A stretch of DNA of 64,000 nucleotides from Thermoplasmata archaeon (GTDB lineage Archaea > Thermoplasmatota > E2 > UBA202 > JdFR-43): positions 15,081 through 79,080 of the forward strand of contig JAGGXW010000006.1 of NCBI GenBank assembly GCA_021162815.1, in the 5' to 3' direction. Shown here piece after piece: positions 7,562 through 33,742 of the stretch. Position 1 is the stretch's first letter, and every line of letters starts with the position of its first letter. The translations under genes and the position numbers were made by a program. The notes under the pieces are model-generated. The model saw only the letters and a list, made by a program, of their open reading frames with translations. It was not told where the DNA came from and did no database searches.

Positions 7562-7659
7562 AGCCCCGTGGTGTAGTGGCCAAGCATGCGGGACTTTGGA
7601 GGCTTGTAAAGAAAGAGCTGGAGTAATCCCGCGACGGCAGTTCGAATCTGCCCGGGGCT
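7562..7659 (+). tRNA. tRNA-Gln (anticodon UUG) with a 26-nt intron at 37/38
   Basis: A1-U72 acceptor (AGCCCCG/CGGGGCT), typical of archaeal tRNA-Gln. Anticodon stem CGGGA/TCCCG, loop CTTTGG|A. T-arm GGCAG-TTCGAAT-CTGCC. Intron 7600..7625. Confidence 0.8.
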
Positions 7660-7663
7660 ATGT

Positions 7664-13739: not shown

Positions 13740-16439
13740 ATGAACAGGAAAAAAATTGCTTTATTACTGGCTGTTATTATGGCGCTTCCTGTATTTACAG
13801 GTTGTGTCGAAAAATTTCAAGAGGTAAATGGATTCAGCATGGCTACTGTTGATGACATTCATTCAGAAAGAAATCAGGATGCAACTCCTGTATTGGCAAG
13901 TAAGAATAATCCATTTTATGCCCTCATAGCTACCCCTGTTTCGCTTTATTATGATGAAGAACATAAAATACATGTAGAGCCCCTTCTCGTGACGAACTTC
14001 TCAAATCCTTCCAGGCCTGTTGAGAGACTGGAAAACATGATTCCAATGTCCTATTATGAGATAAGAAGTGGAAGTGCAGAGAATGTTTCAAAAGCTCTGA
14101 GTAGTGTGTGGAAGAAAAGCGATGCAGCGATGATAATAGAAGACAGCATGAAGGGATATAAGCTGGGAGTAGCCGCCGTTCCTCTTGCAAGTTATCTCGA
14201 TATACCCGTTTTTGTCACAAAAAGCACGAAAAATGTGGAGAGTATATTGAAAAAATTGGGGGTTAAATACACATTTGTGTGCGGAGATGTGGATGGATAC
14301 GCCACAACTTGGAGATTCAGGAATGTAAGAGATATAGAAAATTTCACAATAGATTATCTTAAACACAATTTTGGAGGAGTGAAATACATAACAATAACAA
14401 ATCCTCTCGATATAACAAGGGTTAAAGTTCTGAATGAAACAGAATATGAATGGGAGAATGAAACAAGCTCAATTGACATACTTCCAGCTCAGACAATACA
14501 TGCAATAACCCATGGAATGTTCAGCATTCATGAGTTCAATGTCCCGGATGATTACAAATATGCTAGAATAAAGATAGACCTGATAAATGAAAATTCTGAA
14601 AAGGTGGATGAGCTCGGAGATGATTTGATTCTCCTTGTATATGGACCTGATAACGAAACATATGTATATACCTCCACCTCAGCAGGAATACCTGAACTGG
14701 AAAACGGAGAGATAGTGAAGGACAAGATACATTATGAAACCATTGTATATGGAAAGCCAGGAACATACACGGCTCAGGTGGTTGGAAGATGGGTGGAGAG
14801 AGTATCAGGAAAGTATAAGCTGAAGATAACAATTGAGGAAATAAATGATACAAAACAGCCTCTCATGAAGAATCTGTCCAGCCTTGCCCCATATCTGGCA
14901 GCATATCATCAGGGAATGGTGTTTGCAAGACCAGAGCTTGCATTTGCGAGTAATGAAAGCGTGGGAGTCAAAGGAGTTGTTTACCCATCCACAAATGAGG
15001 AGCTTGTTAAACCATGCGATGAGCATTTGTTTAAAATGCATGAAGAGTTGAATTCCATTCTTGCAAAAATAGCAAATATTTCTGCAGATAATTTAAAAGA
15101 ATTGCGGGACCACTACGCCAGCAATCCACTTTACATTGCCATAATGGCGGACCCAACAATGGTTCCTATGTTCTATTATCATAACCCAGATAGTGATAAT
15201 ATCATAGGTGTTCAGTTGCCAAGTGATTTCTTCTATGGAGATATTGATCCAAATGAAAATGACTGGGAAAATGATACATATACATATTATCCATTCATGG
15301 AGAATGCCGTTGGAAGAGTAACTGGTTACGATGCGGAAGACTGCTCTGCCCTGATTGCAAGAACTGTCCTCTACAATGACATAATAGATAAACTTGGAGA
15401 ATGGAAAAATAATGCAACTGTACAGACCGGAGCTGGTCTGGAATTCCAGTGGATTCCAGTGCTGAGCTATCTGGCAGGTTTAATTACCGGAAGTGAAGAA
15501 CCAACAAAATGGCCAAGTGGTGAAAGCTTATTTGCCAACATGCACATATCAAGTGATATAAAGGAAGGAGGATTCAATGTGAGAAGCACAATACTCACCG
15601 CTTCCCAGAGAGAAGGATTTGAGAATTTGAGGAAAGAGACAAGCAGATTGAATATCCCGTTCCCCGGAGTGATTCAGCTCATAAGCGGTAAACAGATTGT
15701 TAAGGGCGGCGAGCTGCAGCGCAACAGCAATCTCATATTTGCGTTCAATCACGGAATATATTACATGTATGAGTCCGGAGATATACTCCTCGATGCCAGA
15801 GGATTCCCACCTGTAACATGGCTTGCAAGATTTTTCGAACCTCTTGGCATAATGAGTGGTCTTTCAAGCAAAGGAGGTTATGCGGTAAGATATGTTTACA
15901 AGGATGATTATGGACCCAGTGTCATATTTGTTGAGAGCTGTATTGTGGGCAGGACAGATGGTCTGCTTCCTCAGAATTGTCTAACACAGGCATACATACA
16001 TGCGGGAGTGAATTCAATAATAGCATCAACAAGAGTTACTGCAGATCCTGGATATCTTGAACCTGGTTTGATATTCAAGGGATTTGGTGCAAAAGGATTT
16101 ATCCATGCATGGCTGAGACTCGCACTGAAGGGAGAGTATCCACCTCTTCACTTTGGTGGTGTGGTAGCTCAGGAATTTATAAATGACCTGATAAAGAACG
16201 ACAGCACGGTAGGAATGGCACTCAGAGATGCAAAGAATAAATATCTTCCAATAGATGCCAACTCAACATTCCTGTGGACTCCTCCGCTGAGTGGAATAGC
16301 AGACTATGATTACAATGGCTACACAAAAATGAAATTTGAATATGGAAGATATCTGGATAAGAAATATGTGTGCCTGCATGAATTCAATCTGTATGGAGAC
16401 CCTGCATTCAACCCATATCAGCCTGTAAATAACGGCTGA
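13740..16439 (+). CDS. secreted peptidase C25 (gingipain-like, clan CD) family protein, paralog 1; lipobox-like signal
   Basis: Signal peptide ending ...VFTGC. Candidate clan-CD His-Cys dyad (FAFNHG ... VIFVESCIVG). Shares the C25-type blocks with the two paralogs below. 899 aa. Confidence 0.5.
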   Translation: MNRKKIALLLAVIMALPVFTGCVEKFQEVNGFSMATVDDIHSERNQDATPVLASKNNPFYALIATPVSLYYDEEHKIHVEPLLVTNFSNPSRPVERLENMIPMSYYEIRSGSAENVSKALSSVWKKSDAAMIIEDSMKGYKLGVAAVPLASYLDIPVFVTKSTKNVESILKKLGVKYTFVCGDVDGYATTWRFRNVRDIENFTIDYLKHNFGGVKYITITNPLDITRVKVLNETEYEWENETSSIDILPAQTIHAITHGMFSIHEFNVPDDYKYARIKIDLINENSEKVDELGDDLILLVYGPDNETYVYTSTSAGIPELENGEIVKDKIHYETIVYGKPGTYTAQVVGRWVERVSGKYKLKITIEEINDTKQPLMKNLSSLAPYLAAYHQGMVFARPELAFASNESVGVKGVVYPSTNEELVKPCDEHLFKMHEELNSILAKIANISADNLKELRDHYASNPLYIAIMADPTMVPMFYYHNPDSDNIIGVQLPSDFFYGDIDPNENDWENDTYTYYPFMENAVGRVTGYDAEDCSALIARTVLYNDIIDKLGEWKNNATVQTGAGLEFQWIPVLSYLAGLITGSEEPTKWPSGESLFANMHISSDIKEGGFNVRSTILTASQREGFENLRKETSRLNIPFPGVIQLISGKQIVKGGELQRNSNLIFAFNHGIYYMYESGDILLDARGFPPVTWLARFFEPLGIMSGLSSKGGYAVRYVYKDDYGPSVIFVESCIVGRTDGLLPQNCLTQAYIHAGVNSIIASTRVTADPGYLEPGLIFKGFGAKGFIHAWLRLALKGEYPPLHFGGVVAQEFINDLIKNDSTVGMALRDAKNKYLPIDANSTFLWTPPLSGIADYDYNGYTKMKFEYGRYLDKKYVCLHEFNLYGDPAFNPYQPVNNG

Positions 16440-18687: not shown

Positions 18688-20619
18688 TTAAGAATAGCCC
18701 CCTATGAGCAGACTGGGGTCGCCAAAGAGAACCCATTCCTCAACTGTTTTGCAGTTTACCAGATCAGCTGTATGAGGGTTATCTACCCAGTTCATATCCC
18801 AGTTTATGGAGAAATTGTTTAGATAGTCTGTCAGAGCTGTACCCCACACTGCTCCAAGGTTATGTATGCCTCCATGATTGTATACTTCAAAGAAGTGTGG
18901 TTCAAGCCATCCATCCAGATACTGTATGCAATCCGGTATTCCATCTGGCACGCTGTCGGGTATTTCATCCACGGGTCCATCACCTATGGTGCCATATCCC
19001 AGTCCTGTATTTCCTATGGCAGATATTGAGCCACCATTGGCATTGCTTACAAATCTCCAGCCCCAGCACTCAGGTGTCATTTCTCCAAGGTAATATGCCC
19101 ATATCCCTTCCTTGAATATTCTGAAGATACTCACATTGAACTGGCAATTATGACAGCCTCCAACAACCATCACAGGCAATTTCTCTCCATTGCTCAGGCT
19201 TTTTATATTTTCAAGGCTGAAATCTATCCATGTATTGAAGTCATTATGAGGATGAGTGGCCCATGAGGCAGGATTTCCATGACCACTGAAATATAGAAAG
19301 CCGCAGCCCTGTGATATTATCTCAGCCGCAGCATCTCCAGTGAAATTAATATCTCCTCCCTCCACCCATATTCGTGTGGCATCAAACCCATCCATGAAGT
19401 TCACTGCCTGCTCGTTCTCCACCTGTCCCTCTATGTAATCTGTTCCCACATCCTCATCAGGGAAGGAATCTCCTCCAATTACAATGAATTTTTTGAACCA
19501 TGGCTGATTGTGGGTGTTGTCCTCATAATTTATTATTTTATTAACCACTGTCTGCATTTCCCTTACATTTCTGCATGCAAGTCTGCCAACATACACATCC
19601 GGATACAGATCAAGCTTATCCTTATTTTTAATATTCCATTCCGCATATATTCCATTTCCATTGCTATCCCAGTTATCAAAAACTATGTTGCCATTATCAT
19701 ATTTGTAAATATCAGCGTAGTACAGATCGCTTATATAACTTGCCTCAAAACTGGAATTATCATCTAGGTGGCTATATCTCACAGGAATCCACCATGAATT
19801 GAGGAATTGATACTTCATTCCCCCAGCAAGCAATACATACTTTATTCCATATTTTTCAATTGCATCCTTTATGGCATACTTTATTTTCTCAGGCTCATCT
19901 CTTCCACTATAGCTGGAGTATATTTCTTCAGTTGTCATGAGTATTGTTTTTATTCCATGCCTCTCCTTATGTTCTATTAGAGGTTGCAATACATCCTTGA
20001 ATTTTGATGGTGCAACTATGAGCAAATCATAGCCATCACCTGCAATATTTGTATTCCCGCCTTCATATTCTATGATGATGTTCATATTTTTTGCATATTC
20101 AATTTCATTTGCTGAAGGAATATATCTAACAGGATAAATTTTTATGGTGAGGTATAAAACATGTCTGTAGCCATCAAGCCCAACTCCAACATTATACACA
20201 AACCACCTGTCAGGGTATATACTTCTGGTATAGTCTGCCCTTACCTGCATATTCCCATTCATTCCATATATTAACGCACCGATAGATGGAGCAATCTTTT
20301 TATCAATTATCATTTTATTGGACAGCACATCAGCATGAATGCTCGTTATTTTACTTCCAAGAGGCAGTATGATTGTTTTTGTCAGGTATGGAAGCACTGG
20401 TTCGTTTCTGTTTAATGTATAGCCAGTTATATTATCCATGGTCAAATAGGCGTATCTATCTCCATAATGGATAGTTGGAGTTGAAAAGCTGAAGTGAATT
20501 TTCATTTCGTTTTCTCCATTTTTTCCAAATCCTCGAATGTCGTTGCCAACCATTCCAGACATCATAGAAGCAGATATCATGATTGCTATCCCCACAAATG
20601 CAAATACAATTCTCCTCAT
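18688..20619 (-). CDS. secreted peptidase C25 (gingipain-like) family protein, paralog 2
   Basis: Matches the PF01364-like blocks (DLLIVAPSKF..LQPLIEHKE..G, IKYVLLAGG, SDLYYADIY, PDVYVGRLAC...KIINYE). Candidate catalytic SGHG and GGCHN. Signal peptide. Confidence 0.65.
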   Translation of the reverse strand: MRRIVFAFVGIAIMISASMMSGMVGNDIRGFGKNGENEMKIHFSFSTPTIHYGDRYAYLTMDNITGYTLNRNEPVLPYLTKTIILPLGSKITSIHADVLSNKMIIDKKIAPSIGALIYGMNGNMQVRADYTRSIYPDRWFVYNVGVGLDGYRHVLYLTIKIYPVRYIPSANEIEYAKNMNIIIEYEGGNTNIAGDGYDLLIVAPSKFKDVLQPLIEHKERHGIKTILMTTEEIYSSYSGRDEPEKIKYAIKDAIEKYGIKYVLLAGGMKYQFLNSWWIPVRYSHLDDNSSFEASYISDLYYADIYKYDNGNIVFDNWDSNGNGIYAEWNIKNKDKLDLYPDVYVGRLACRNVREMQTVVNKIINYEDNTHNQPWFKKFIVIGGDSFPDEDVGTDYIEGQVENEQAVNFMDGFDATRIWVEGGDINFTGDAAAEIISQGCGFLYFSGHGNPASWATHPHNDFNTWIDFSLENIKSLSNGEKLPVMVVGGCHNCQFNVSIFRIFKEGIWAYYLGEMTPECWGWRFVSNANGGSISAIGNTGLGYGTIGDGPVDEIPDSVPDGIPDCIQYLDGWLEPHFFEVYNHGGIHNLGAVWGTALTDYLNNFSINWDMNWVDNPHTADLVNCKTVEEWVLFGDPSLLIGGYS

Positions 20620-20660
20620 TTTCTCACCCCTAAGTAATCAAAAAAATATTTAAATAATTA

Positions 20661-23225
20661 TCAATCCCAGAATCGACGGGTGCGTGCATAAATAATCTCC
20701 GCCTCCAGTATCTCCCGATAAAAATCCATGCCCTTTTTCTGCGCCGCCAGAATCCTTGCCGCCGTATCGGGGCCAATGCCATGGGCGGCCATTGCTTCTA
20801 TTGCCCTTTTTCCGTGCCATGCTACAAGGGAAGCACTTTTCATTTTCCTATCCTTTGACATATTTCTCTTAACTACTGCCATCATTCTGCTGCCGCATTT
20901 CGGGCATTTGATGGGGGCCCTGTAAACTCTTGTGATGGTTTTATAACCGCAGTTCATGCACTCCATTCTTATCATGGTCTCCTCAATTCTTTTCTTAACA
21001 GCCTCCAGCATTTTTTTATCAATTCCAAAAGTGAATATCTCGCTCCTTTTCTTCTCCCGGCTCTTGGACATTGGAGAAAGGGGCTGCATAATCAGCTTTA
21101 TCTGGCCTTTCTTCAATTTTTCGATAACTTTCTTGGCATGTTCCATATCCATTCTGTCCCATATTGTTTTATCTATTGCTTCCTCAATTACAGGCGTTCT
21201 TTCAAATATTGCAACAAATCTTTTTACTGATATGCTCCTGTAATCAGCATCCTTTGAAATTACACCAAATTTTCTGGCAACCTTCACAAGTTCCCATTTA
21301 ATGGAATTGCTTCTCTTCAGTATTATGCGAAGTAAGGCATCAAGTGTTTCCTCACTGATGGAGTAAAAAATATCCTTTATAACATCAAGAGCTATTGATA
21401 GTGGCATGTTAAGATAAATTCTGTATGCGTCGCTTGTGACATCAACGCTTCCATATCTCTGGCTTACAAGAGCACCTATTAACTTTGAAAAAGTCTCATT
21501 CGTTTTTGAACCGAAATGTGTTGTAATAACAACATTTGTCCCCTCCCTCTCCAGCGTTATTACTCTGTCGGATGGAACAGCAAAGCCCTTCTCAATCTGC
21601 TTCTCTATTTCATTATATATAATCTCATCCTTTATCTTACCCTCAGCCACAAATCTGCGCAGCCTTCCAACTTCCTGAGCTATTTCGAATGGCACCGGTA
21701 TTTCCTCACCCACCCAGTCCGGTATTATGCTTGTGTTAGAAGAAGGAGAAACTTTAATTATATCATCCATCTCAACAATTTCCCATGCTCTTCCCTTCAT
21801 TATAAACCTCGTTCCAATATCACATGTTGATACAAAGCATTCATCAAGTTTTCCTATTCTTTTATTTGTTGAAATATCCACAACATTCATGCTTTTTTCA
21901 TCAGGTATCATTGAGATGTTGTCCATGAAATAAAGCCTTGTTGTCTTTCTGCTTTTTATTTTATCATCAATCCATATTACTCTGGAATGGGAAAGCTGCT
22001 TTACCACATCCATAAAAAGTTCCTTGCTTAAGTTGGAAAAGGGATACGCCCTTCTTATTATTGTATAAACTCTCTCAACTTCAATTGAACCATATTCATT
22101 TGCAATTGCAACAATCTGATTTGCCAGAACAGAAAGGGGATTTTTTCTTATTCTTATATTTTCAACATCATTTTTTGCTGCCTTTTCAGCTATAACGCAT
22201 GCTTCTGCATATTCCTCCTCATCAGATGCTATCACCATTCCTCTGGCTACTCTTCCAACCTTATGACCACTCCTCCCTATTCTCTGCACCATCCTGGCAA
22301 CCTGATGAGGAGAGTTATAATGAAGGATGAAATCAGCCCTCCCGATGTCTATACCAAGTTCGAGGCTGGAGGTGCATATGAGCGCCTTTATCTCTCCCCT
22401 CTTAAATCTCTCCTCTGCATCAATTCTTGCTTCTTTAGAGAGGGAGCCATGATGTATTTCCACTCCATCTTTTAGCATTTTTGATGCAATTATTTCAGCA
22501 GTATCCCTCGTATTGACAAAAAAGAGTGTTGATTCATGCTTTTTTATCTCCTCTCTGGCTCTTTTTATGGCATTCTCCATGGAATTCTCATAAACAACAT
22601 CTATCTTCATTTTCTTCTCTTCCATGGCATCTATTATCTCCACCTCTCTTCCTCCTCCAAGAAATTTTGCTATCTCGATAGGATTTCCAATGGTGGCAGA
22701 TAATCCTATTCTCTGGTAATCTCCTGCAATTTCATTCAATCTTTCCATGGCAACAGCAAGCTGTGCTCCTCTTTCATTGGATGCAAGTTCATGTATTTCA
22801 TCCACTATAACCCATCTGACATGCATTAGATTGCTCCTCAATTTTTTGCCGGATAACATTATCTGGAGTGTTTCAGGCGTGGTTATAAGCATATCAGGAG
22901 GATGCACAGCCTGTCTTCTTCTTTCCCCTCTGCTGGTATCCCCATGACGAACTGCTATTTTTATTCCCAGATGTCTGCCCCATTCCGACATTCTCTGCAG
23001 CATATCTCTGTTCAATGCTCTAAGGGGGGTTATATACAGTATCTTTACACCGTCTTCTCGCTTCTCAGAAAGAAAGAGATGAAATACTGGCATCATAGCT
23101 GCCTCCGTCTTTCCCATGCCTGTTGGAGCTATTATGAGACAGTTCTTCCTCTGCAATATAACAGGTATTGCCTTTTTCTGGGGCAACGTGAATTCCTTTA
23201 TATTACTGTTTTTCAGGAATTCCAT
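20661..23225 (-). CDS. Lhr-like large DEAD/DEAH-box helicase with C-terminal zinc ribbon and HhH-like tail
   Basis: Walker A APTGMGKT, DEIH box, helicase C-terminal motifs. Long C-terminal region ending in CMNCG...CPKCGS and GIGPDTAARIL. The ORF extends to 23291, but the start is probably the internal Met at 23225. Confidence 0.7.
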   Translation of the reverse strand: MEFLKNSNIKEFTLPQKKAIPVILQRKNCLIIAPTGMGKTEAAMMPVFHLFLSEKREDGVKILYITPLRALNRDMLQRMSEWGRHLGIKIAVRHGDTSRGERRRQAVHPPDMLITTPETLQIMLSGKKLRSNLMHVRWVIVDEIHELASNERGAQLAVAMERLNEIAGDYQRIGLSATIGNPIEIAKFLGGGREVEIIDAMEEKKMKIDVVYENSMENAIKRAREEIKKHESTLFFVNTRDTAEIIASKMLKDGVEIHHGSLSKEARIDAEERFKRGEIKALICTSSLELGIDIGRADFILHYNSPHQVARMVQRIGRSGHKVGRVARGMVIASDEEEYAEACVIAEKAAKNDVENIRIRKNPLSVLANQIVAIANEYGSIEVERVYTIIRRAYPFSNLSKELFMDVVKQLSHSRVIWIDDKIKSRKTTRLYFMDNISMIPDEKSMNVVDISTNKRIGKLDECFVSTCDIGTRFIMKGRAWEIVEMDDIIKVSPSSNTSIIPDWVGEEIPVPFEIAQEVGRLRRFVAEGKIKDEIIYNEIEKQIEKGFAVPSDRVITLEREGTNVVITTHFGSKTNETFSKLIGALVSQRYGSVDVTSDAYRIYLNMPLSIALDVIKDIFYSISEETLDALLRIILKRSNSIKWELVKVARKFGVISKDADYRSISVKRFVAIFERTPVIEEAIDKTIWDRMDMEHAKKVIEKLKKGQIKLIMQPLSPMSKSREKKRSEIFTFGIDKKMLEAVKKRIEETMIRMECMNCGYKTITRVYRAPIKCPKCGSRMMAVVKRNMSKDRKMKSASLVAWHGKRAIEAMAAHGIGPDTAARILAAQKKGMDFYREILEAEIIYARTRRFWD

Positions 23226-23272
23226 TATTTTTTCATGCAGCACATTTAAAAGAGCAGGTATCAAATTTAAAT

Positions 23273-24040
23273 CTATTCTTCTCCTCTGCAATTCCTTTCT
23301 TTAACTGTATTGATTAAATGGGCAGCAACACCCGCTCCAAATCCATTATCAATGTTCACAACAACTATGCCAGAAGAGCATGAATTCAACATTCCCATCA
23401 ATGCCGCAACCCCTCCCAAGCCAGTGCCATATCCAATGCTTGTAGGAACGGCAATCACGGGAGATGAAACAAAGTTTGAAACCACCGTTGGAAGCGCTCC
23501 CTCCATTCCTGCAACAACAACCACAACATTTGCATTTTCAAGTATTTCGATGTAGTCAAGTAGGCGATGCATGGATGCTATCCCAACATCATAAACTCTC
23601 TCCACATCATTTCCAAGCTCATACGCAGTCACCGCTGCCTCCTCCGCCACCCGCCTGTCGGATAGACCAGCGGCGACAATGGCTATGTAACCCTCATTTT
23701 TCTTTTGCCTTTCTCCCGATACAATCATTTCTGCATCCTCGTAATATCTGAAATCATCCATATCTCTCATATACTCATATATTTCCCTGCCAGCCCTCGT
23801 TATGAAAACCTTTCCATGCTTTTTCATAGCCTCTGCTATAGCCCTCACATCCTCCTTCTTTTTACCAGCAGCATATATCGCTTCAGGAATGTGCCTGAAT
23901 GTCATTCTGTAAATATCTATTTTGGCATCCTTTAATTTGAGATATGGAAAATGTTTCAGCTCCTTCATCGCTTCCTCAATGCCTATTTCATGATTCCACA
24001 GCTTTCTCAGAATTTCCTCCATTGTAATAAATTGGAACAT
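23273..24040 (-). CDS. PurE-like / LarB-family protein (AIR-carboxylase-related)
   Basis: C-terminal PurE-like motif VVVAGMEGALPTVV...PVIAVPTSIGYG with an N-terminal ~100-aa extension, as in LarB. Confidence 0.55.
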   Translation of the reverse strand: MFQFITMEEILRKLWNHEIGIEEAMKELKHFPYLKLKDAKIDIYRMTFRHIPEAIYAAGKKKEDVRAIAEAMKKHGKVFITRAGREIYEYMRDMDDFRYYEDAEMIVSGERQKKNEGYIAIVAAGLSDRRVAEEAAVTAYELGNDVERVYDVGIASMHRLLDYIEILENANVVVVVAGMEGALPTVVSNFVSSPVIAVPTSIGYGTGLGGVAALMGMLNSCSSGIVVVNIDNGFGAGVAAHLINTVKERNCRGEE

Positions 24041-24068
24041 TTAAATTTATAATTTTGTTTAGAAAGCA

Positions 24069-25160
24069 ATGAAAAAATATGTTGTGATTGCTCTCACACT
24101 AATAGCAGCCTTTTCCATCTCCGTTGCGTTGTTTCCCCACGAACTGTATGATGAATTCCTCTGGAAGTACATAATAGGCCCTGTAATTGCAGATGCCACA
24201 GGCCATCCTGTGAGCTATCATGGAATAACTGCCCATGAGGGATATTCCTTTGTGTCAGAGATAATATATGCAGTTTTTCTTTTGGCTGCCGTCTATATAT
24301 TATATCTATTTTTTGAAAGAATTGGAAAGACGATTGATGCAAAATTTTTCGCAGCTTCTTTGCCATTCATTCTTCTTGGCTCATTTGGAAGGATTCTTGA
24401 GGATGCAGGACTGTTTAAAGAACCTGTTTCCTTCTTTTTCATTTCTCCTCTCATCTACATTCAGATTGGTTTCTATTTTTCCTTTTCTATCGCTTTTGGC
24501 CTGTATATCAAAAAATTGAAATATTTTGTGTGCGCAGCAACGATAATTGAGGTGATTTACATAATCATCTACTCTCTTTTCAGTGGTTTTTTTGCATATC
24601 TCATTCATCCTGTAATATTCCTTCTGTTCATAATGATAGCCATATACCTGTATGCCATATCTGATAGAGATTACATCTCCTCCATGTATTCCTTTGGGTT
24701 GATATTTCTCATTATGCCTCTCCTCTCCTCCATAGCGCTGGCTGCAGGAGCATGGGGAAACGCACATATTCACATGGAGATATTCATATCCATCATAATA
24801 GCTGGGGGTGTAACTGCGTTAATATACATCATATCAAAAATTCTCAAATCAATATATCACAATGCAATAAACAGCAGCCTGATTTTCTCCCATGGATTAG
24901 ATGCCTTCACAACATACATTGCGGTATCCAATCCCTTTGGTTTCAGCATCAGTTATGGAGAAAAACATCCTCTCCCTTCATTGTTGCTATCCTTCAATGG
25001 AATATCCTATCCTACTGTAAAAATGATTGTAATACTCCTCATAATATATGGAATAGAAGAGCTAAAAAAGAATTTGAAGAATGCAATAAAATTCATGATT
25101 CTGTTTATTGGCCTCGCTCCTGGATTGAGGGATTTTCTTAGAATACTTCTCGGCATATGA
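24069..25160 (+). CDS. polytopic integral membrane protein of unknown function
   Basis: 363 aa, at least 9 hydrophobic helices, no recognisable motifs. Confidence 0.5.
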   Translation: MKKYVVIALTLIAAFSISVALFPHELYDEFLWKYIIGPVIADATGHPVSYHGITAHEGYSFVSEIIYAVFLLAAVYILYLFFERIGKTIDAKFFAASLPFILLGSFGRILEDAGLFKEPVSFFFISPLIYIQIGFYFSFSIAFGLYIKKLKYFVCAATIIEVIYIIIYSLFSGFFAYLIHPVIFLLFIMIAIYLYAISDRDYISSMYSFGLIFLIMPLLSSIALAAGAWGNAHIHMEIFISIIIAGGVTALIYIISKILKSIYHNAINSSLIFSHGLDAFTTYIAVSNPFGFSISYGEKHPLPSLLLSFNGISYPTVKMIVILLIIYGIEELKKNLKNAIKFMILFIGLAPGLRDFLRILLGI

Positions 25161-25193
25161 AAAAAATTAATTATAAAAAGATGTTTCATTCTC

Positions 25194-26993
25194 ATGAAGA
25201 TATTGTTTCTGCATGTTGATTACATTGAATACGAGGCAAAAGAGAAGGCAATAAAAGATGCCGAGGAAATAGAGGAAAAGAAAGTAAGGATGGATGATGC
25301 CCTTGTGGCATTCATTTCAGTTGAAAACAATGATTCCTACCTCCCAGGAGTTAAAGAAATAAAAGATGTCGCAGAAAAACTGTCTGTGAAAAGAATAATG
25401 TTATATCCCTATGCTCATCTTTCATCGGATCTCGCTCCTCCAGATGAAGCAATCAATATTCTGAAAAAAATGGAGGAAGAAGTGGCAGAGGAATATGAAG
25501 TTAAGAGAGCTCCTTTTGGATGGTACAAAGCATTTAAATTGAGCTGCAAGGGACATCCTCTGGCAGAACTTTCAAGAGAGGTTAAAGCAGGGGAGGAAGA
25601 AGAAAAGGAAAAGGAGGAAGTGGTATCAAAATGGTATATTCTCACTCCAGAGGGGAAGCTAATTGAGGCTGAAAAATTTGATTTTAAAGGACATGAGGAA
25701 TTGAAAAAATTTTATGAGTACGAAGCCTTCGGTAGCAGGAAAGCTGATAAAGAGCCAGCCCACATAAAATTAATGCAGGAACTGGAACTTGTAGATTATG
25801 AACCTGGTTCAGATTATGGCAATATGAGATGGTACCCCAAAGGATATCTCATAAAAAGATTGCTTGAAGATAAAGTGGAGAAGATGTGCCTTGATGCAGG
25901 CGCAATGCAGGTGGAGACGCCAATAATGTATGATGTGGCTCATCCGGCTCTTAGCAAATATCTGAAAAAATTTCCAGCAAGACAGTACAGGGTCAAAGGA
26001 GATAAGGGAAGAGAATTTTTCTTGCGATTTGCGGCATGCTTTGGCCAGTATTTGATGGCAAAGGACATGGTTATTTCATACAAAAATCTCCCGATAAGAC
26101 TTTTTGAGGTGGCAAAAGCATTCAGGAGAGAGCAACACGGAGAGGTGAGTGGAATAAAAAGGCTCAGAGCATTTACCATGCCCGATATGCATACAATATG
26201 CATGGATGAAAAGCAGGCAATGGAAGAATTCAAAAAACAGTTTGAACTTGCATTGAAATGGAAGGATATAATAAACATAGATGGAGAGGTTGCCATAAGA
26301 TTTGTTAGAGAATTTTTTGAAAGAAACAGAGAATTTGCTGTTGAATTAGCAAAACTTGTTGGAAAACCCGTACTGATAGAAATGTGGGATAAAAGATATT
26401 TCTACTTCATAATGAAATTTGAAATAAACATGAACGATTCTGTGGGAAAGGCATTTGCTTTATCGACGGTGCAGATTGATATCGAAAATCCAAAGTCCTT
26501 TGACATAACCTATGTTGATGAGGAAGGCAATAAAAAGTATCCATATCTACTTCATGCATCAATTTCAGGGGGGATAGACAGGTGTGTATGCGCACTGCTG
26601 GAGAATGAAGCAAAGAAAATGAAAAAGGGCATAAAACCAATGCTTCCATTCTGGCTATCTCCCACCCAAGTAAGATTGATACCGGTAAAGAAAGAGTATG
26701 TGAATGAGTGCATTGAACTATCTGAGAAGATAAATGCGAGAGTGGACATAGATGATAGAGATGAGAGTGTGGCAAGAAGAATAAGAGATGCTGAGAAGGA
26801 ATGGGTACCTATTATAATAGTCTATGGAGAAAAGGAGAGAGAGGGAAAAATAACTCCAAGATGCAGATTTGATTGTGGAGAGATAAAAACTATAGAGGAA
26901 CTAAACAATAAAATAGATGAATTGGCAGCAGGCTTTCCTACACGGAAGCTACCGCTTCCCAAACTCCTCAGCATGAGGGCAAGATTCAAGTGA
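25194..26993 (+). CDS. thrS: threonyl-tRNA synthetase, archaeal type with N-terminal Dtd-like editing domain
   Basis: N-terminal MKILFLHVDYIEYEAK... is the archaeal ThrRS editing-domain start, followed by a class II aaRS core and an anticodon-binding domain. 599 aa. Confidence 0.85.
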   Translation: MKILFLHVDYIEYEAKEKAIKDAEEIEEKKVRMDDALVAFISVENNDSYLPGVKEIKDVAEKLSVKRIMLYPYAHLSSDLAPPDEAINILKKMEEEVAEEYEVKRAPFGWYKAFKLSCKGHPLAELSREVKAGEEEEKEKEEVVSKWYILTPEGKLIEAEKFDFKGHEELKKFYEYEAFGSRKADKEPAHIKLMQELELVDYEPGSDYGNMRWYPKGYLIKRLLEDKVEKMCLDAGAMQVETPIMYDVAHPALSKYLKKFPARQYRVKGDKGREFFLRFAACFGQYLMAKDMVISYKNLPIRLFEVAKAFRREQHGEVSGIKRLRAFTMPDMHTICMDEKQAMEEFKKQFELALKWKDIINIDGEVAIRFVREFFERNREFAVELAKLVGKPVLIEMWDKRYFYFIMKFEINMNDSVGKAFALSTVQIDIENPKSFDITYVDEEGNKKYPYLLHASISGGIDRCVCALLENEAKKMKKGIKPMLPFWLSPTQVRLIPVKKEYVNECIELSEKINARVDIDDRDESVARRIRDAEKEWVPIIIVYGEKEREGKITPRCRFDCGEIKTIEELNNKIDELAAGFPTRKLPLPKLLSMRARFK

Positions 26994-29213
26994 TTATTTT
27001 CTGATATACACTGCAATAAGCATTATCGCCACAAGGATAAGGAATAATGGTATTATAACCTGGAGCATGAGCAGAAGGAAAGAACTCTGTTTGGCTTTAT
27101 CAGCCATCTCCTCTATTGACTCATCTGACATGTGATATGAAAGATCAGCAACAGTGACACGATTTCCAGATAATTTTTCTATCATTGCCTTGGTATGTTT
27201 TGCCTCCTCAATACTCTTATCAATATTTTCCGTCTTAATGCTTATATTCAACGCTTCAACTGAAGAATTGGATAGCTTTACGAGATTTATTTTATTTTCA
27301 AGAGAGGATTTTATGCTGTTTATTGTGTCCTGAGAAAACGATACATTTAGTTTATAGACATCAATCCAGAGCCACCCCCTTATACCCAGCAGCATTTCAA
27401 GAGGATTTATTTTCTTTACAGATTGCTTGTGCATATCAACAACCATTCCAGTATTGGGTTCAACCCAGTACTTTGTATCGGTTATATACATAATATTCTG
27501 CTCTATTCCTGGTGTGGAATCATACAAAATGCGTTTCTCGCTTGTTTCAAAGAGATAGGTATGTACTCCATCATGCTCCTCCTCTCTCACAAAATATGCA
27601 GGGGAGACAGCATTTATTTCTGTATTCCATATATTGTATGTTCTCTTTTCCACTCCGACAGGAAATGAAAAGTATCCATCCCTATCCATATCTCCGTAAT
27701 TTTTCACTTCCATTGCTGTGTCTGCATCAACACCATGATATTCCACCTTGCATCCTTCCTCTATTTTTTCCATTTTCTTGGCATCATATGTTGTGGTATT
27801 GTCTTCAAGAAGAAGTATCTTCCTTCCTTTCTCAAAATAAACATTTTTAACCTTTATTTCTCTGTTCATCACAATATTTTTCTTTGGCTGTGATATTATC
27901 CACAAACTCCCTTCCATTTTGAGAGATGTGTTGAAATCCTCTGGTATTGTATGAAGGTTTGGAAAATGAGATATGACCCTTCCATTTTTCTCAATATACA
28001 CAATGCTTCCCGATACAGGCTCCACATAATAGATTGTCGAACCATTATAATAGAGTTCAACAAATCTATCACTCAAGCCAGGAAGAGATTGTTTTTCAAT
28101 GTAAACATCTCTGGCATTCTGGATGAATTTATAGGTATCAATTCCTCCTATATTCTCCTCTCCACTATATACAGCAACAGACACATTGTTTATCTCCCCA
28201 TTCCAAAGTTCATAGTTCTTTCTCTCCACTCCTATCGGGAATGTCATCAATCCACGCTTATTGCTGAGAAATTTCATATACTCCATGGTCACAGGATTTA
28301 CAGCGTCTTTGGAAGAGGATGAAATCTCCTTTATCACTTTGCCATCTTCATCCTCTGCCACAATATCATTCTCAACAATATAATAGGATGAAGAGGCATT
28401 CAGCACCTTTATATGATTGCTCACGGTAATGTTGTATTCCTCTGGCAAACCAGTAGTGGTATTCAGTATTTTGACCTTCCCACACAGCAATACCGTCTTA
28501 TTGAGATTTGAAGGTAATTTATGCAAATCAGGAAACTGCGCATCCTGCTTGACATGCTTTGCGAGATTTATTATGGCTCCTGTCACAACATCCACCCAAG
28601 CCTGCTGCTCCCCGCTGTAATACATTTTTGCCTCGGGTAAATCGGGAAGAGGGCCAATATAAACATCATGCTGGCCTCCATAATACTTGTAACATTTGAT
28701 TCCATGTACATATTCCACACCGTCATAATAGGCGGTAGCCACAGCTTCCTGAGGAGAGATATATCCCTTTTTGCATGCCTCATCAAGGTCACTATTCCAT
28801 ATGGCATAATTCTTCTTCTCTATACCCACGGGGAAGAGCCAGTACCCGAGTCTATCCAGATCCCCATATCCCTTGATATTCTCAGCTGTTCTCTCATTTA
28901 TACCGTAAATTTTTACCGTATGAAATTCGGGCAGCTCTTTTCCATTGTCTGCATTAAAAACATTTATATCCTCTCTTATGATAAGTACATTTCCCTCATG
29001 CTGCAAAGCCTTTACATGCCTCTGTATTTCTATATTCCTGTAATTCATTGTCAGGGTGCTCATATTTAGCATGCCAAGTTTACCATCATAGTATATCACC
29101 ATATCAAGGTCAGATGGATATTTTTTCATCGATGGAACGACATAAAATGAAAGTGAAGGTGATATGATTATGAGAACGATTGCGATTATGAGTAATGCAC
29201 TTTTTCCCCCCAT
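26994..29213 (-). CDS. large surface protein with N-terminal signal anchor, three ~200-aa internal repeats and a C-terminal TM anchor
   Basis: Repeat motif FP(V/I)G(V/I)E(K/R)(K/R)(N/T)Y.(I/L)WN.(D/E)(I/L) occurs three times, each preceded by GY/GD...D..GY. The ORF is open to 29480, but the extension is antisense to the Taw3 gene, so the MGGK Met (29213) is the preferred start. Confidence 0.5.
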   Translation of the reverse strand: MGGKSALLIIAIVLIIISPSLSFYVVPSMKKYPSDLDMVIYYDGKLGMLNMSTLTMNYRNIEIQRHVKALQHEGNVLIIREDINVFNADNGKELPEFHTVKIYGINERTAENIKGYGDLDRLGYWLFPVGIEKKNYAIWNSDLDEACKKGYISPQEAVATAYYDGVEYVHGIKCYKYYGGQHDVYIGPLPDLPEAKMYYSGEQQAWVDVVTGAIINLAKHVKQDAQFPDLHKLPSNLNKTVLLCGKVKILNTTTGLPEEYNITVSNHIKVLNASSSYYIVENDIVAEDEDGKVIKEISSSSKDAVNPVTMEYMKFLSNKRGLMTFPIGVERKNYELWNGEINNVSVAVYSGEENIGGIDTYKFIQNARDVYIEKQSLPGLSDRFVELYYNGSTIYYVEPVSGSIVYIEKNGRVISHFPNLHTIPEDFNTSLKMEGSLWIISQPKKNIVMNREIKVKNVYFEKGRKILLLEDNTTTYDAKKMEKIEEGCKVEYHGVDADTAMEVKNYGDMDRDGYFSFPVGVEKRTYNIWNTEINAVSPAYFVREEEHDGVHTYLFETSEKRILYDSTPGIEQNIMYITDTKYWVEPNTGMVVDMHKQSVKKINPLEMLLGIRGWLWIDVYKLNVSFSQDTINSIKSSLENKINLVKLSNSSVEALNISIKTENIDKSIEEAKHTKAMIEKLSGNRVTVADLSYHMSDESIEEMADKAKQSSFLLLMLQVIIPLFLILVAIMLIAVYIRK

Positions 29214-29262
29214 GAAAGAATTTATCGCAAACCTATTTAAGAAAGTTTCGAATGAATTTCTG

Positions 29263-29853
29263 ATGGGAAAGGAAAGCGTTTTTATAGAAAAAAAGAGAAT
29301 TGCAATGGAAAAATTGAGGGATGCTGTCAAGAACAAAAAGGTGGATTCAAAAATTATGGGAATACTGGAAAAAATAAACAAGATGAATGAATACTTTACC
29401 ACAAGCAGTTGTGCTGGAAGGATAATTCTGCTCAAACTTCCAGAGGCTGGAGATAAAAAAAATGCTGTTTTTATTGGCAAATGGCATGAAAAAGTTGTGG
29501 CTGAGGAAATAATGAGATTAATCGAATGTTTGGATGATGAAATATGGTTTATGGTTAATCCACCTATAATACATGTCGGCTGTAAAACAATGAAGGATGT
29601 AAAGGCTTTATTAACTGTTGCAAATCAGAGTGGTTTCAAACATTCGTCAATAAAATCTGTCGGGAAAATTGTATTTGTTGAAATACTCAGCACAGAAAGA
29701 ATGGATGTTCCAATATGTTTTAAAGGCAGAATGCCAGTAGATGAGGAGTATATCAGAATACTTGTTGAAATAGCAAATAAAATGATGGATAGAATTGATA
29801 AGAAGCTGGCAAAACTGGATGAAGAACTAAGCAAGATGTCTCAGCGTTTGTAG
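29263..29853 (+). CDS. taw3: tRNA wybutosine-pathway methyltransferase Taw3 (TYW3 homolog)
   Basis: Conserved [11 protein letters not shown] motif (TYW3 signature S-S-C-x-G-R-I). About 200 aa counting from the MGKESVF Met. Confidence 0.65.
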
Positions 29854-31267: not shown

Positions 31268-33742
31268 ATGAGGCAGATATTGAAAATGGGGGCAAAGATG
31301 AAGAAAATATTTGTTTCGTTACTGGTGATTGTGCTTCTTGTAGGGGGAATGAATATAGCAGGAATAAATGGAGTAAACAGAGTACTCAATTACAATCAAA
31401 GCTCTGGTAAACTATCAATAAATCAAAAGATAGAATTTTCATCTCCTGTAATCGGAAAGGATGGAGAATATCAGTATGTTTCATTAAAAAATTGCAATTC
31501 CTATATTGTAAAACCGGGCTATCCAATGCTTCCAAAAATGGTGAAGGATATCGAATTGCCATTCAATGCAAGGGACATTCGGGTCAATGTAGATGTGAGA
31601 GGAGAAAGAGAATATAGCATGGAAAGGTACATTATCCCGGCTCCAGCCAGAGTGAGATTATCAGATGGCAAGCTTGTGGAGGGAGGGATAAATGAAAAGG
31701 CTTACAGAAGCAATTCTCTCTTTCCAAATGTGAGTTATTCATATCACTTCGGTGTGGGGCTTAATGGACATGGAAAAAGAGTGATACATCTGGTTATTGA
31801 TATATATCCGGTAAAATACATAGCAGGAGAGAGAAAAATAATTGTTGCAGATAGAGCAGATATTGAGATAAAATACAGGTTAGCAGATGAGCAGGAGGTG
31901 GAAACATATGATTTGCTCATAATTGCCCCATCATCATTCAAGGATGCATTGCAGCCATTGATAGAGCATAAAGAAAGCATTGGAATTCCAACCCTGCTAT
32001 TGACAACTGAAGAAATATACTCCAGCTATAGTGGAAGAGATGAGCCTGAGAAAATAAAGTATGCCATAAAGGATGCAATTGAAAAATATGGAATAAAGTA
32101 TGTATTGCTTGTAGGAGGACTTAAATCAAAAATATATGCAAAGCCAAAGGATAATGTGAATGCAGGAGTAACTGGATGGTATTTGCCTGTAAGATACTCC
32201 AACTGCCGATACTGGGAAGGAGATGATCCTGGAGTTATAACAGATCTGTACTACGCTGATATTTACAAATATGAAGATGGAAAAGCTGTTTTTGATAACT
32301 GGGACAGCAATGGAAATGGAATATATGCAGAATTCACTCCATCAAGTCAGGATAAACTTGATCTGTATCCGGATGTGTATGTTGGCAGACTTGCATGTAG
32401 AAGCGTTAAGGAAGTGCAGGATATTGTAGAGAAGATAATAGGATATGAAAATGATGAAAAATCATGGTTTTATAGAATGATAGGAATAACAGGAGATGGA
32501 TTTCTTGATCAGCAGGATTTGAACATAACATGGGATGTTAGAAATGTGCCCGATGGAAAATATACCCTATATGCTCAGAGTATGAATGATGAAGGCAAAA
32601 CAGGACCAATAGATGTGACAAATTTCACAGTTGATCATGATGCGGAAACAAAGCTAACATTCAATCATGATGATTATCTCATACCTGCCCTTAAAAACGG
32701 ATATCCTGCGCCCCCAATAGCCAAAATTGTCTCCATATCTGAGGGAGATGTTATAGGCAGCAACGACTACACATATTCTCCATCTGAAAGGGAGGCGTAT
32801 TTAAATTCATATTCTCACTGGGCAGATGTGGAGTATGTGAATGGTATACTACACATAAGAGGAAAAAGCTATGACCCCCAGCTGTATGGAGATTACACCA
32901 ACATTCACGTATGGATTCAGAATGAAAATGGGGAAACAATATTTTCAGCATGGAGAAATAACACCCTTCAGATAGCAGAGGGAGACTGGACTGTTGGAGA
33001 AAGGGTCCTCCATGGAAGAGGTGGAGCATTCTATTACATGCCGGATAATTTTGAAAAGATATTTTTGTCCACCTCAAATGGCAATTTCACCGGCAAACAG
33101 GATGTGGTGGATGCACTTAGCGAGGGAGCAGGATTTGTTTTCTTTTCCGGGCATGGAAGCCCTGGAGTGTGGGCAAATCATTATCCCGGCATACCCGGGA
33201 ACAGGCAACATGCAGAAATTATAGGATTATCTGTAAGCGATTTGGATGGCTCTCCTCATTTCCCCATGGATGCAATCTCAAATAATGGCAAACCCTTCAT
33301 ATGCATTGTAGGAGGATGCCACAACAGCCAGTTCAATATTTCTCTGGCATTGACAGCTATAGACTGGTTTAACAGGCATTCCATGAATACATATGGTTAT
33401 CCTGTTCCGGAAACATGGAGCTGGTACATTGTTAAGCAAACAGATAAGGGAGCGATAGCAAGTATAGGGAACACGGGATATGGTTACGGGAATCTTGGAG
33501 AGTGGTGCGTTGTGGGAGGCGTTGATAACTGGATAACAACAGAATTTTTCAGAGTCTATGCCGAGAATGAAGCAGAGGCTGTTCTGGGAAACATATATGA
33601 AAAGACCATAAGCAATTACATAACACACTTCCATGACTTTGTTCTGCCCGATGTCCATGAAGGCTGGGATGCTGGAGATTTAAAAACAGTGCAGCAGTGG
33701 GTTCTGCTTGGAGACCCAAGCTTACAGCTCCTCCCTCCATGA
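31268..33742 (+). CDS. secreted peptidase C25 (gingipain-like) family protein, paralog 3 (with ~180-aa insertion)
   Basis: Same C25 blocks as paralog 2 (YDLLIIAPSSF..LQPLIEHKE, IKYVLLVGG, TDLYYADIY, PDVYVGRLAC...KIIGYE). Candidate catalytic SGHGSP and GGCHNSQF. Signal peptide. Confidence 0.65.
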   Translation: MRQILKMGAKMKKIFVSLLVIVLLVGGMNIAGINGVNRVLNYNQSSGKLSINQKIEFSSPVIGKDGEYQYVSLKNCNSYIVKPGYPMLPKMVKDIELPFNARDIRVNVDVRGEREYSMERYIIPAPARVRLSDGKLVEGGINEKAYRSNSLFPNVSYSYHFGVGLNGHGKRVIHLVIDIYPVKYIAGERKIIVADRADIEIKYRLADEQEVETYDLLIIAPSSFKDALQPLIEHKESIGIPTLLLTTEEIYSSYSGRDEPEKIKYAIKDAIEKYGIKYVLLVGGLKSKIYAKPKDNVNAGVTGWYLPVRYSNCRYWEGDDPGVITDLYYADIYKYEDGKAVFDNWDSNGNGIYAEFTPSSQDKLDLYPDVYVGRLACRSVKEVQDIVEKIIGYENDEKSWFYRMIGITGDGFLDQQDLNITWDVRNVPDGKYTLYAQSMNDEGKTGPIDVTNFTVDHDAETKLTFNHDDYLIPALKNGYPAPPIAKIVSISEGDVIGSNDYTYSPSEREAYLNSYSHWADVEYVNGILHIRGKSYDPQLYGDYTNIHVWIQNENGETIFSAWRNNTLQIAEGDWTVGERVLHGRGGAFYYMPDNFEKIFLSTSNGNFTGKQDVVDALSEGAGFVFFSGHGSPGVWANHYPGIPGNRQHAEIIGLSVSDLDGSPHFPMDAISNNGKPFICIVGGCHNSQFNISLALTAIDWFNRHSMNTYGYPVPETWSWYIVKQTDKGAIASIGNTGYGYGNLGEWCVVGGVDNWITTEFFRVYAENEAEAVLGNIYEKTISNYITHFHDFVLPDVHEGWDAGDLKTVQQWVLLGDPSLQLLPP

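Follow-up and report, generated by a model that had tools for sequence, protein, structure and literature searches.

The 64,000-nucleotide (nt) stretch of DNA analyzed here (the window), positions 15,081 to 79,080 of contig JAGGXW010000006.1 in the GenBank assembly GCA_021162815.1 of a Thermoplasmata archaeon, encodes two paralogous C25 (gingipain-family) cysteine peptidases, referred to below as genes A and B, which share a perfectly identical 111-nt segment in inverted orientation. With a probability of approximately 0.9, this block was left by ectopic (inter-paralog) gene conversion between A and B. The recent conversion between C25 paralogs proposed in an earlier note on this DNA is supported by synonymous homogenization that is limited to patches, by orthologs of both genes that lack the block, and by the reproduction of the repeat across assemblies. 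The block lies within a patchy converted core of roughly 460 nt (A, 20031..19574; B, 31907..32397) and is the youngest patch of this core, mutation-free so far.

Sequence identity between genes A and B

The reverse complement of 19827..19937 is identical to 32001..32111 at all 111 nt, and the repeat is maximal, with a mismatch directly past both ends. Each arm falls within a gene with a Peptidase_C25 profile match. The second, shorter identical block mentioned in the earlier note was located as well; it comprises 32 nt, gatctgtactacgctgatatttacaaatatga, present in the forward orientation at 32243..32274 and as the reverse complement at 19697..19728. The flanks of the 111-nt block had been described as 70 to 80% identical, which holds for the 96 nt upstream (76%) but not for the 96 nt downstream, where identity drops to 48% and an 11-codon indel is found; past this low-similarity flank, it climbs back to ∼96% in three short patches. 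Comparison of the window with itself thus gives patchy, rather than uniform, divergence between the paralogs. A repeat search over the whole window detected only two inverted pairs, both in these genes: 19814-20031 with 31907-32124 (218 nt, 87% identity) and 19523-19735 with 32236-32448 (213 nt, 81% identity).

A chance origin of the 111-nt identity is excluded. In the protein-guided codon alignment of A and B (1,857 aligned nt, 55% identity), shuffling of the discordant sites produced a longest exact run of 27 nt in 10,000 trials over the whole alignment and of 48 nt in 20,000 trials over the conserved central 519 nt (77% identity). In the sense of GENECONV/Sawyer-type tests, the 111-nt run is therefore longer than the divergence of the paralogs predicts.

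The codons point in the same direction. Where A and B have the same degenerate amino acid, they use the same codon at 36 of 36 positions within the block, at 91 of 111 (82%) across A residues 197 to 350, and at 58 of 148 (39%) outside the core; at the latter rate, 36 matches in a row would have a probability of ∼2e-15 (0.39^36). Synonymous sites are thus homogenized within the tract and diverged outside it. The two genes are 100% identical in the block, whereas A differs there from its ortholog A2 (on contig L014, 82% protein identity), with 81 to 82% nt identity, and B from its ortholog B2 (on L015, 87% protein identity), with 78 to 79%. Outside the core, grouping follows orthology, with 78% nt identity for A-A2, 80% for B-B2, and 52% for A-B. 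The phylogenetic signal is accordingly discordant, A and B grouping together in the block and orthologs grouping together elsewhere, and the comparison with sister genomes confirmed that orthologs of both A and B lack the nucleotide sequence of the block. A natural control is provided by the protein P0139 from an unrelated sample, whose gene specifies 35 of the 36 block residues yet, with 16 base differences, agrees at only 95 of the 111 nt.

Codon identity limited to the block, the nucleotide divergence of the orthologs, and the P0139 control together argue for recent copying and against constraint or codon bias. Preservation of the block without recombination, through an embedded RNA or DNA element or extreme codon bias, could draw on the conservation of the block peptide, which ranks near the top of the family, and on the fairly high nt identity of the block between genomes (70 to 87%). 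However, the block differs from its orthologs at 18 to 22% of bases, a nearly equal peptide is specified with 16 base differences in P0139, and between-genome pairs matched for G+C content at third codon positions (GC3) have no excess of identical codons. An embedded RNA was rejected as a candidate, as no Rfam family matched the block, gene A, or gene B. Such nucleotide-level constraint is extremely improbable.

The converted core consists of two tracts separated by an unconverted spacer (Table 1). Besides the 111-nt block, tract I includes an upstream part of 96 nt that looks like an older, eroded conversion tract. The spacers of A and B are family specific: the motif AGGMK.Q...SHLDDNSS is kept in every A ortholog, and VGGLKSKIYAKP.DN.NAG...SNCRYWEGDDPG is kept in every B ortholog. 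These spacers are only 48% identical, and conversion is confined to the stretches where protein conservation keeps the DNA similar; the conversion tracts end where similarity collapses, at the family-specific indel region.

Table 1. Coordinates of genes A and B, their exact runs (at least 14 nt), conversion tracts, and associated features in the window
Feature	Coordinates	Strand	Details
Gene A	18688..20619	-	C25 (gingipain-family) cysteine peptidase, 643 amino acids (aa); open reading frame (ORF) list; PF01364
Gene B	31268..33742	+	C25 cysteine peptidase paralog, 824-aa ORF; ORF list; PF01364, Propeptide_C25
Arm 1, exact repeat	19827..19937	-	Gene A: last 2 nt of codon 228, codons 229-264, first nt of codon 265; peptide TTEEIYSSYSGRDEPEKIKYAIKDAIEKYGIKYVLL
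Arm 2, exact repeat	32001..32111	+	Gene B, same frame and same peptide as arm 1
Exact run, 15 nt	A 20031-20017; B 31907-31921
Exact run, 111 nt	A 19937-19827; B 32001-32111
Exact run, 32 nt	A 19728-19697; B 32243-32274
Exact run, 17 nt	A 19683-19667; B 32288-32304
Exact run, 23 nt	A 19665-19643; B 32306-32328
Exact run, 41 nt	A 19614-19574; B 32357-32397
Converted tract I, gene A	19814..20031	-	111-nt block plus upstream part YDLLI...HKE, 76% identical to B
Converted tract I, gene B	31907..32124	+	Partner of A 19814..20031
Unconverted spacer, gene A	19736..19826	-	AGGMKYQF-LNSWW...SHLDDNSSFEAS; between tracts I and II
Spacer, gene B	32112..32235	+	11 extra codons; 48% identical to A spacer
Converted tract II, gene A	19574..19728	-	Runs of 32, 17, 23, and 41 nt; DLYYADIYKY, FDNWDSNGNGIYAE, DKLDLYPDVYVGRLAC; patches 96-97% identical
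Converted tract II, gene B	32243..32397	+	Partner of A 19574..19728
Inter-gene segment	20620..31267		Lhr helicase, AIR-carboxylase-domain gene, AliA/AliB, thrS, 828-aa PorA-domain protein, TYW3, adenosine-specific kinase, Tsr3-like gene, cupin
Third C25-domain gene	13740..16439	+	899 aa; Pfam 6.8e-13, partial match; 2.2 kb from A

A and B are ancient paralogs, only ∼45 to 47% identical as proteins; BLASTP aligns their N-terminal halves at 47% and their C-terminal halves at 32% identity, and B has an ∼180-aa insertion relative to A. Their orthologs form separate series in other Thermoplasmata metagenome-assembled genomes (MAGs), at 82%, 64%, 62%, and lower identity for A and 87%, 76%, 75%, and lower for B. 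Their PF01364 matches are well above the cut-off of 23 bits (3.1e-55, 188 bits for A; 2e-47, 163 bits for B), the propeptide matches are weak, and A has an N-terminal hydrophobic segment. The product of gene A is identical to the public protein P0001, named “peptidase C25 [Thermoplasmata archaeon]”; the public counterpart of B is P0121, and the public gene call places the start of B at 31298, giving 814 aa. Identical proteins are encoded in GCA_053938725.1 and in several ENA, JGI, and Logan assemblies. His447 and Cys489 of A align with the catalytic His211 and Cys244 of RgpB (1CVR/4IEF), and both are invariant in an eight-sequence alignment. The block (A residues 229 to 264) aligns to approximately residues 42 to 76 of mature RgpB, off the catalytic dyad; the segment that bears it forms a strand-helix-strand unit of the catalytic domain, within its N-terminal subdomain and outside the catalytic His/Cys region.

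Alternative explanations, direction, and mechanism

All sources of this sequence are short-read metagenome assemblies, in which De Bruijn graph simplification can erase the few differences of a near-repeat, and false identity could thus arise from collapsed or bubble-popped reads of two similar paralogs. However, the block is present in both genes of three spanning assemblies, L006 and L008 (ENA) and L007 (NCBI GCA_053938725.1), the last representing a strain 0.44% divergent from the window, as well as in single-gene contigs of GCA_053989895.1 and JGI 3300017593, which brings the total to at least five independent assemblies. It recurs across different samples and pipelines (two each from ENA, NCBI, and JGI) and in two strains. 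The Logan contig L009 (k = 31) stops 30 nt into arm 1, and the JGI contigs L099 and L102 stop 91 and 99 nt into arm 2, distances that fit the k-mer sizes of the assemblers; such breakage of lower-k contigs inside the block is expected of a true exact repeat. Moreover, an assembler cannot raise ∼75 to 80% similarity to 100% over 111 nt while leaving the flanks paralog specific. An assembly artifact is accordingly very improbable. A scan of metagenome contigs with a 52-nt seed from the block returned no matches; the scanned collection evidently lacks even the JGI contig in which the block is known to occur.

L006 differs from the window at four positions in 21 kb, all within the converted core: 19618, 19630, and 19642 in A and 32398 in B. 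The last is T in the window and C in two assemblies, which changes codon 377 of B from TGT to TGC, the state in A, and lengthens the 41-nt run; this polymorphism is suggestive of continuing exchange between A and B. The three differences in A are third-codon-position single-nucleotide polymorphisms (SNPs) at 12-nt spacing, common to the divergent strain L007. Conversion from B was rejected as their source, as B is matched by just one of the three alternative alleles and L007 has this haplotype as well; the cluster is better explained by strain mixing or recombination.

The polarity of exchange was read from family-wide diagnostic residues together with the nucleotide matrix; polarity from synonymous sites relative to B2 alone was dropped as unreliable, B2 being itself converted. 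B has the A-family states HKE (HKN in the B family), TTEEIYS (TTDEIYA), IEKYG (IEEYG or IEQYG), FDNW...IY (FDDW...IF), and DKLD. In the patch GRDEPEK, A has the B-family state GRDEPE, where the A family has DQQE, DDAE, or DEQE. Tentatively, most patches were copied from A to B and one (GRDEPEK) from B to A. In the simplest history, at least one short patch would first have passed from B to A, after which the block would have been converted from A to B; tract II would add A-to-B events of its own.

As for the mechanism, the nucleotide similarity of the conserved segment would let the homologous-recombination machinery pair A and B. Heteroduplex formation or repair synthesis over this segment, resolved without crossover, would copy the sequence of one gene onto the other, and repeated events would build up the patchy ∼460-nt core with exchange in both directions. 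The likely route would be RadA-type homologous recombination with short-patch heteroduplex processing, as in Sulfolobus. We infer this molecular route, the polarity, and the number of events, and also that such conversion arises from repair as a largely neutral side effect and is not selected.

Several points weigh against direct A/B conversion as stated. The comparisons are of assembled contigs, and a merging of near-identical copies by the assemblers could have made the two arms look slightly more alike than they are. The polarity and the number of events are tentative because the outgroups used to read them underwent conversion themselves; B2, from the MAG AUK202, has at least 127 nt in common with another paralog. 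Nonreciprocity, by which conversion is formally defined, can at most be suggested by a single end state, here through the family-diagnostic residues. Finally, a third C25 paralog elsewhere in the genome could be the donor to both A and B, so that conversion would operate within a multimember network. In favor of such a donor, related genomes hold up to eight C25 genes among the fetched loci, several of which share exact runs pairwise. Furthermore, Logan contigs (k = 31) of three samples, found among L100, L101, L105, and L107 and representing both strains, all stop at 31955, which lies 46 nt ahead of the block at a site without any 31-mer common to A and B, and another Logan contig stops at 33688, in a conserved C-terminal motif of B. 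These breaks suggest that additional C25 genes of this genome or community contain identical stretches of 31 nt or more. On the other hand, A-family and B-family characters are combined in the block, a mosaic that direct exchange between A and B accounts for. Its exact peptide is found in none of the 240 retrieved family members besides A and B, and the sole other C25 gene in the window is too divergent to participate, with no exact runs in common with A or B. A protein search with a 101-aa fragment around the block retrieved only short unrelated fragments and missed even B, which makes it uninformative. A third donor is unlikely, and direct conversion between A and B is preferred.

The earlier note also raised an inversion of the intervening ∼12-kb segment through recombination at the inverted repeat; no support for this was found, every contig that spans a copy of the repeat being in the reference arrangement, and it stands as a possibility only. 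In its strongest form, the repeats would be the crossover sites of a programmed or frequent switch that swaps the N- and C-terminal halves of the peptidases. As in inversion and shufflon-type switches, the arms are inverted, identical, and in frame in two related genes, and a crossover would give two intact hybrids of ∼808 and ∼649 aa. In addition, the nearest relatives of the N- and C-terminal parts are discordant in 23 of 55 full-length genes of the family (L016-L095), so that crossovers in the core have probably occurred over evolutionary time. Unlike such switches, this locus has a short repeat (111 nt) and no recombinase: no recombinase, invertase, integrase, or other mobile-element gene is found between A and B or in the flanks (∼10 kb on each side), and the genes between the repeats and in these flanks are all housekeeping genes. 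The three assemblies that span both genes share one orientation, so the two orientations that would mark a switch in a population were not seen among the spanning contigs. In the six contigs that cover all of B, the intact 814-aa gene lies between the cupin gene and DUF5655, and neither hybrid was seen among the assembled contigs, where rare isoforms could escape. Synteny in relatives is as in the window, with Lhr beside A (L014), Top6A/B downstream of B (L015), and the Tsr3-like gene upstream of B (L095), and the segment holds housekeeping genes such as thrS. Programmed or frequent inversion is therefore highly improbable, and an invertase switch was rejected, as no recombinase gene is nearby and the repeat is the most conserved segment. 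A diversity-generating retroelement would have a reverse transcriptase nearby, repeats that differ at adenines, and a ligand-binding domain with a variable region. Such an element was also rejected, given that no reverse transcriptase gene is nearby, the repeats are 100% identical, and the segment is the most conserved rather than a variable one.

Some contigs contain irregularities of their own. The JGI contig L010 (3300017593, Ga0187538_158322) is a fold-back that runs from 20504 to 26034 of the window and then, reversed, from 20614 to 14132; its join, with an imperfect 24-nt microhomology, links 26034 in thrS to the reverse complement of 20614 at the 5′ end of A and yields an in-frame 914-aa thrS::C25 fusion ORF. 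The same sample also contains L103, a normal contig. A rearrangement of gene A was rejected, as the fold-back junction has no relation to the 111-nt repeat, and L010 is most likely an amplification or assembly chimera. In L008/L003 (ENA ERZ23499535, scaffold_982), both thrS and the AIR-carboxylase-domain gene are broken up into a pair of ORFs (window ∼23300-26400), with an ∼49-nt insertion at 26375-26384; this is probably an assembly error rather than biology.

C25 genes in related genomes

A scan of species-representative genomes, which did not include the species of the window (best match, 62% identical to A), provided the best 80 loci from related Thermoplasmata, many of whose genomes, all of them MAG bins, contain several C25 genes. 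In the MAG AUK202 (GCA_021162065.1), contigs L015, carrying the B ortholog, and L018, carrying an A-like paralog in a tandem of two C25 genes, both open with the same 127 nt (L015:1-127 and L018:1-127). This is the same gene segment as the core in the window, with divergence at the same 3′ boundary, and the contig starts are a repeat-induced assembly break. The sequence is only 79% identical to the block in the window, which indicates an independent conversion event. Similarly, a within-genome C25 pair in AUK033 shares a 169-nt exact run in the region of tract I, and one in CAZGOD shares a 221-nt run in the region of tract II. Many further within-genome runs of 50 to 70 nt are centered on GRD.AEKIKY.IKDAIE.WGIKYVLL, in pairs with roughly 50 to 56% protein identity.

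The longest exact match per C25 pair has a median of 21.5 nt and a 90th percentile of 54 nt within genomes (144 pairs), compared with 14 and 22 nt, and a 99th percentile of 34 nt, between genomes (4,609 pairs). A comparison of the 36 block codons in old paralog pairs and in GC3-matched between-genome pairs gave the same picture. Within genomes (100 pairs), the pooled identical-codon rate is 0.65 in the block and 0.52 in the rest of the gene, with 12% of the pairs reaching at least 80% and 6% at least 90%. Between genomes (728 pairs), the rates are 0.54 and 0.48, with 1.5% and 0% of the pairs, respectively. A pair with at least 80% identical block codons is present in 10 of the 23 multicopy genomes. 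Independent homogenization in several lineages, that is, recurrent concerted evolution, is thus observed in genomes that are MAG bins.

The discordance between N- and C-terminal relatives is exemplified by L050, whose N-terminal part is closest to that of L024 (63%, with 44% in the C-terminal part) and whose C-terminal part is closest to that of L072 (78%, with 27% in the N-terminal part). Judged from such comparisons, the discordance suggests an exchange of modules with breakpoints in the conserved core. It is possible, if still doubtful, that in Thermoplasmata of sediments and vents the conserved core of this expanded family of secreted peptidases serves as a recurrent recombination joint. 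It would combine homogenization of paralogs within a genome with longer-term reassortment of N-terminal (pro-domain) and C-terminal (catalytic or accessory) modules.

Genomic context and relation to known systems

A and B are arranged head-to-head, 10.6 kb apart, with 12 kb between the repeat arms. Among the genes that separate them, the 828-aa ORF at 26994..29480 (minus strand; 739 aa in the public call), located between thrS and TYW3, has four Pfam PorA matches (PF11271, 2.1e-59); the name of this family comes from a corynebacterial porin. Elsewhere in the window, 7562..7660 (plus strand) is a 99-nt Rfam tRNA match to the full model (49.8 bits), whereas ARAGORN finds no tRNA in the window; the match is probably to an archaeal tRNA with an intron.

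That prokaryotic paralogs undergo gene conversion is well established, and the A/B locus is a clean textbook example of this known process in an uncultured archaeon. Particular to it are the inverted paralogs, the patchy conversion limited to the core, the many-member family, and the recurrence across genomes. A close archaeal parallel comes from methanogens, where gene conversion between mtrA-1 and mtrA-2 is restricted to one domain (Wang et al. 2015, PMC4632066). There, too, ancient archaeal paralogs with differing architectures are homogenized only in a shared conserved domain, repeatedly in several lineages. However, the mtrA paralogs are adjacent in one operon and are homogenized over the whole MtrA domain. 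A and B, in contrast, are inverted, lie 12 kb apart, and belong to a many-member family, with short patches (∼30 to 220 nt) between which family-specific segments stay distinct.

Recurrent concerted evolution in prokaryotes has been surveyed, e.g., for tuf, amo, and mtm/mtb (Wang and Chen 2018, PMC6053082); the archaeal genes in that survey number only seven, mtrA among them, are all from methanogens, and mostly encode complex subunits or homopolymers. As in those cases, paralogs within a genome are closer than orthologs between genomes in several lineages. C25 peptidases and Thermoplasmata are not among the archaeal cases, and the C25 signal, being patchy and limited to part of the gene, would probably escape whole-gene tree methods. 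Short, discontinuous recombination tracts were shown experimentally in Sulfolobus acidocaldarius (Mao and Grogan 2012, PMC3367456). The resemblance includes unconverted markers between short tracts and an apparently uncoordinated direction, seen here as exact runs of 15 to 111 nt with mixed polarity. That work was experimental and used exogenous DNA in a crenarchaeon, whereas the pattern described here is an evolutionary footprint in an uncultured member of Thermoplasmata.

In practical terms, exact repeats of this sort break short-read assemblies and confound C25 orthology and phylogeny. Patchy, core-restricted conversion in a peptidase family adds to the seven methanogen genes a pattern that whole-gene methods miss. 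If the core is indeed a recurrent recombination joint, C25 peptidases would be the first archaeal case of recurrent concerted evolution from a group other than the methanogens, and the module reassortment would diversify the extracellular protein-degrading repertoire. C25 proteins are expressed, predicted extracellular peptidases of sediment Thermoprofundales/MBG-D (PMC6461988), and the evolution of this strongly expanded family bears on the archaeal degradation of detrital protein.

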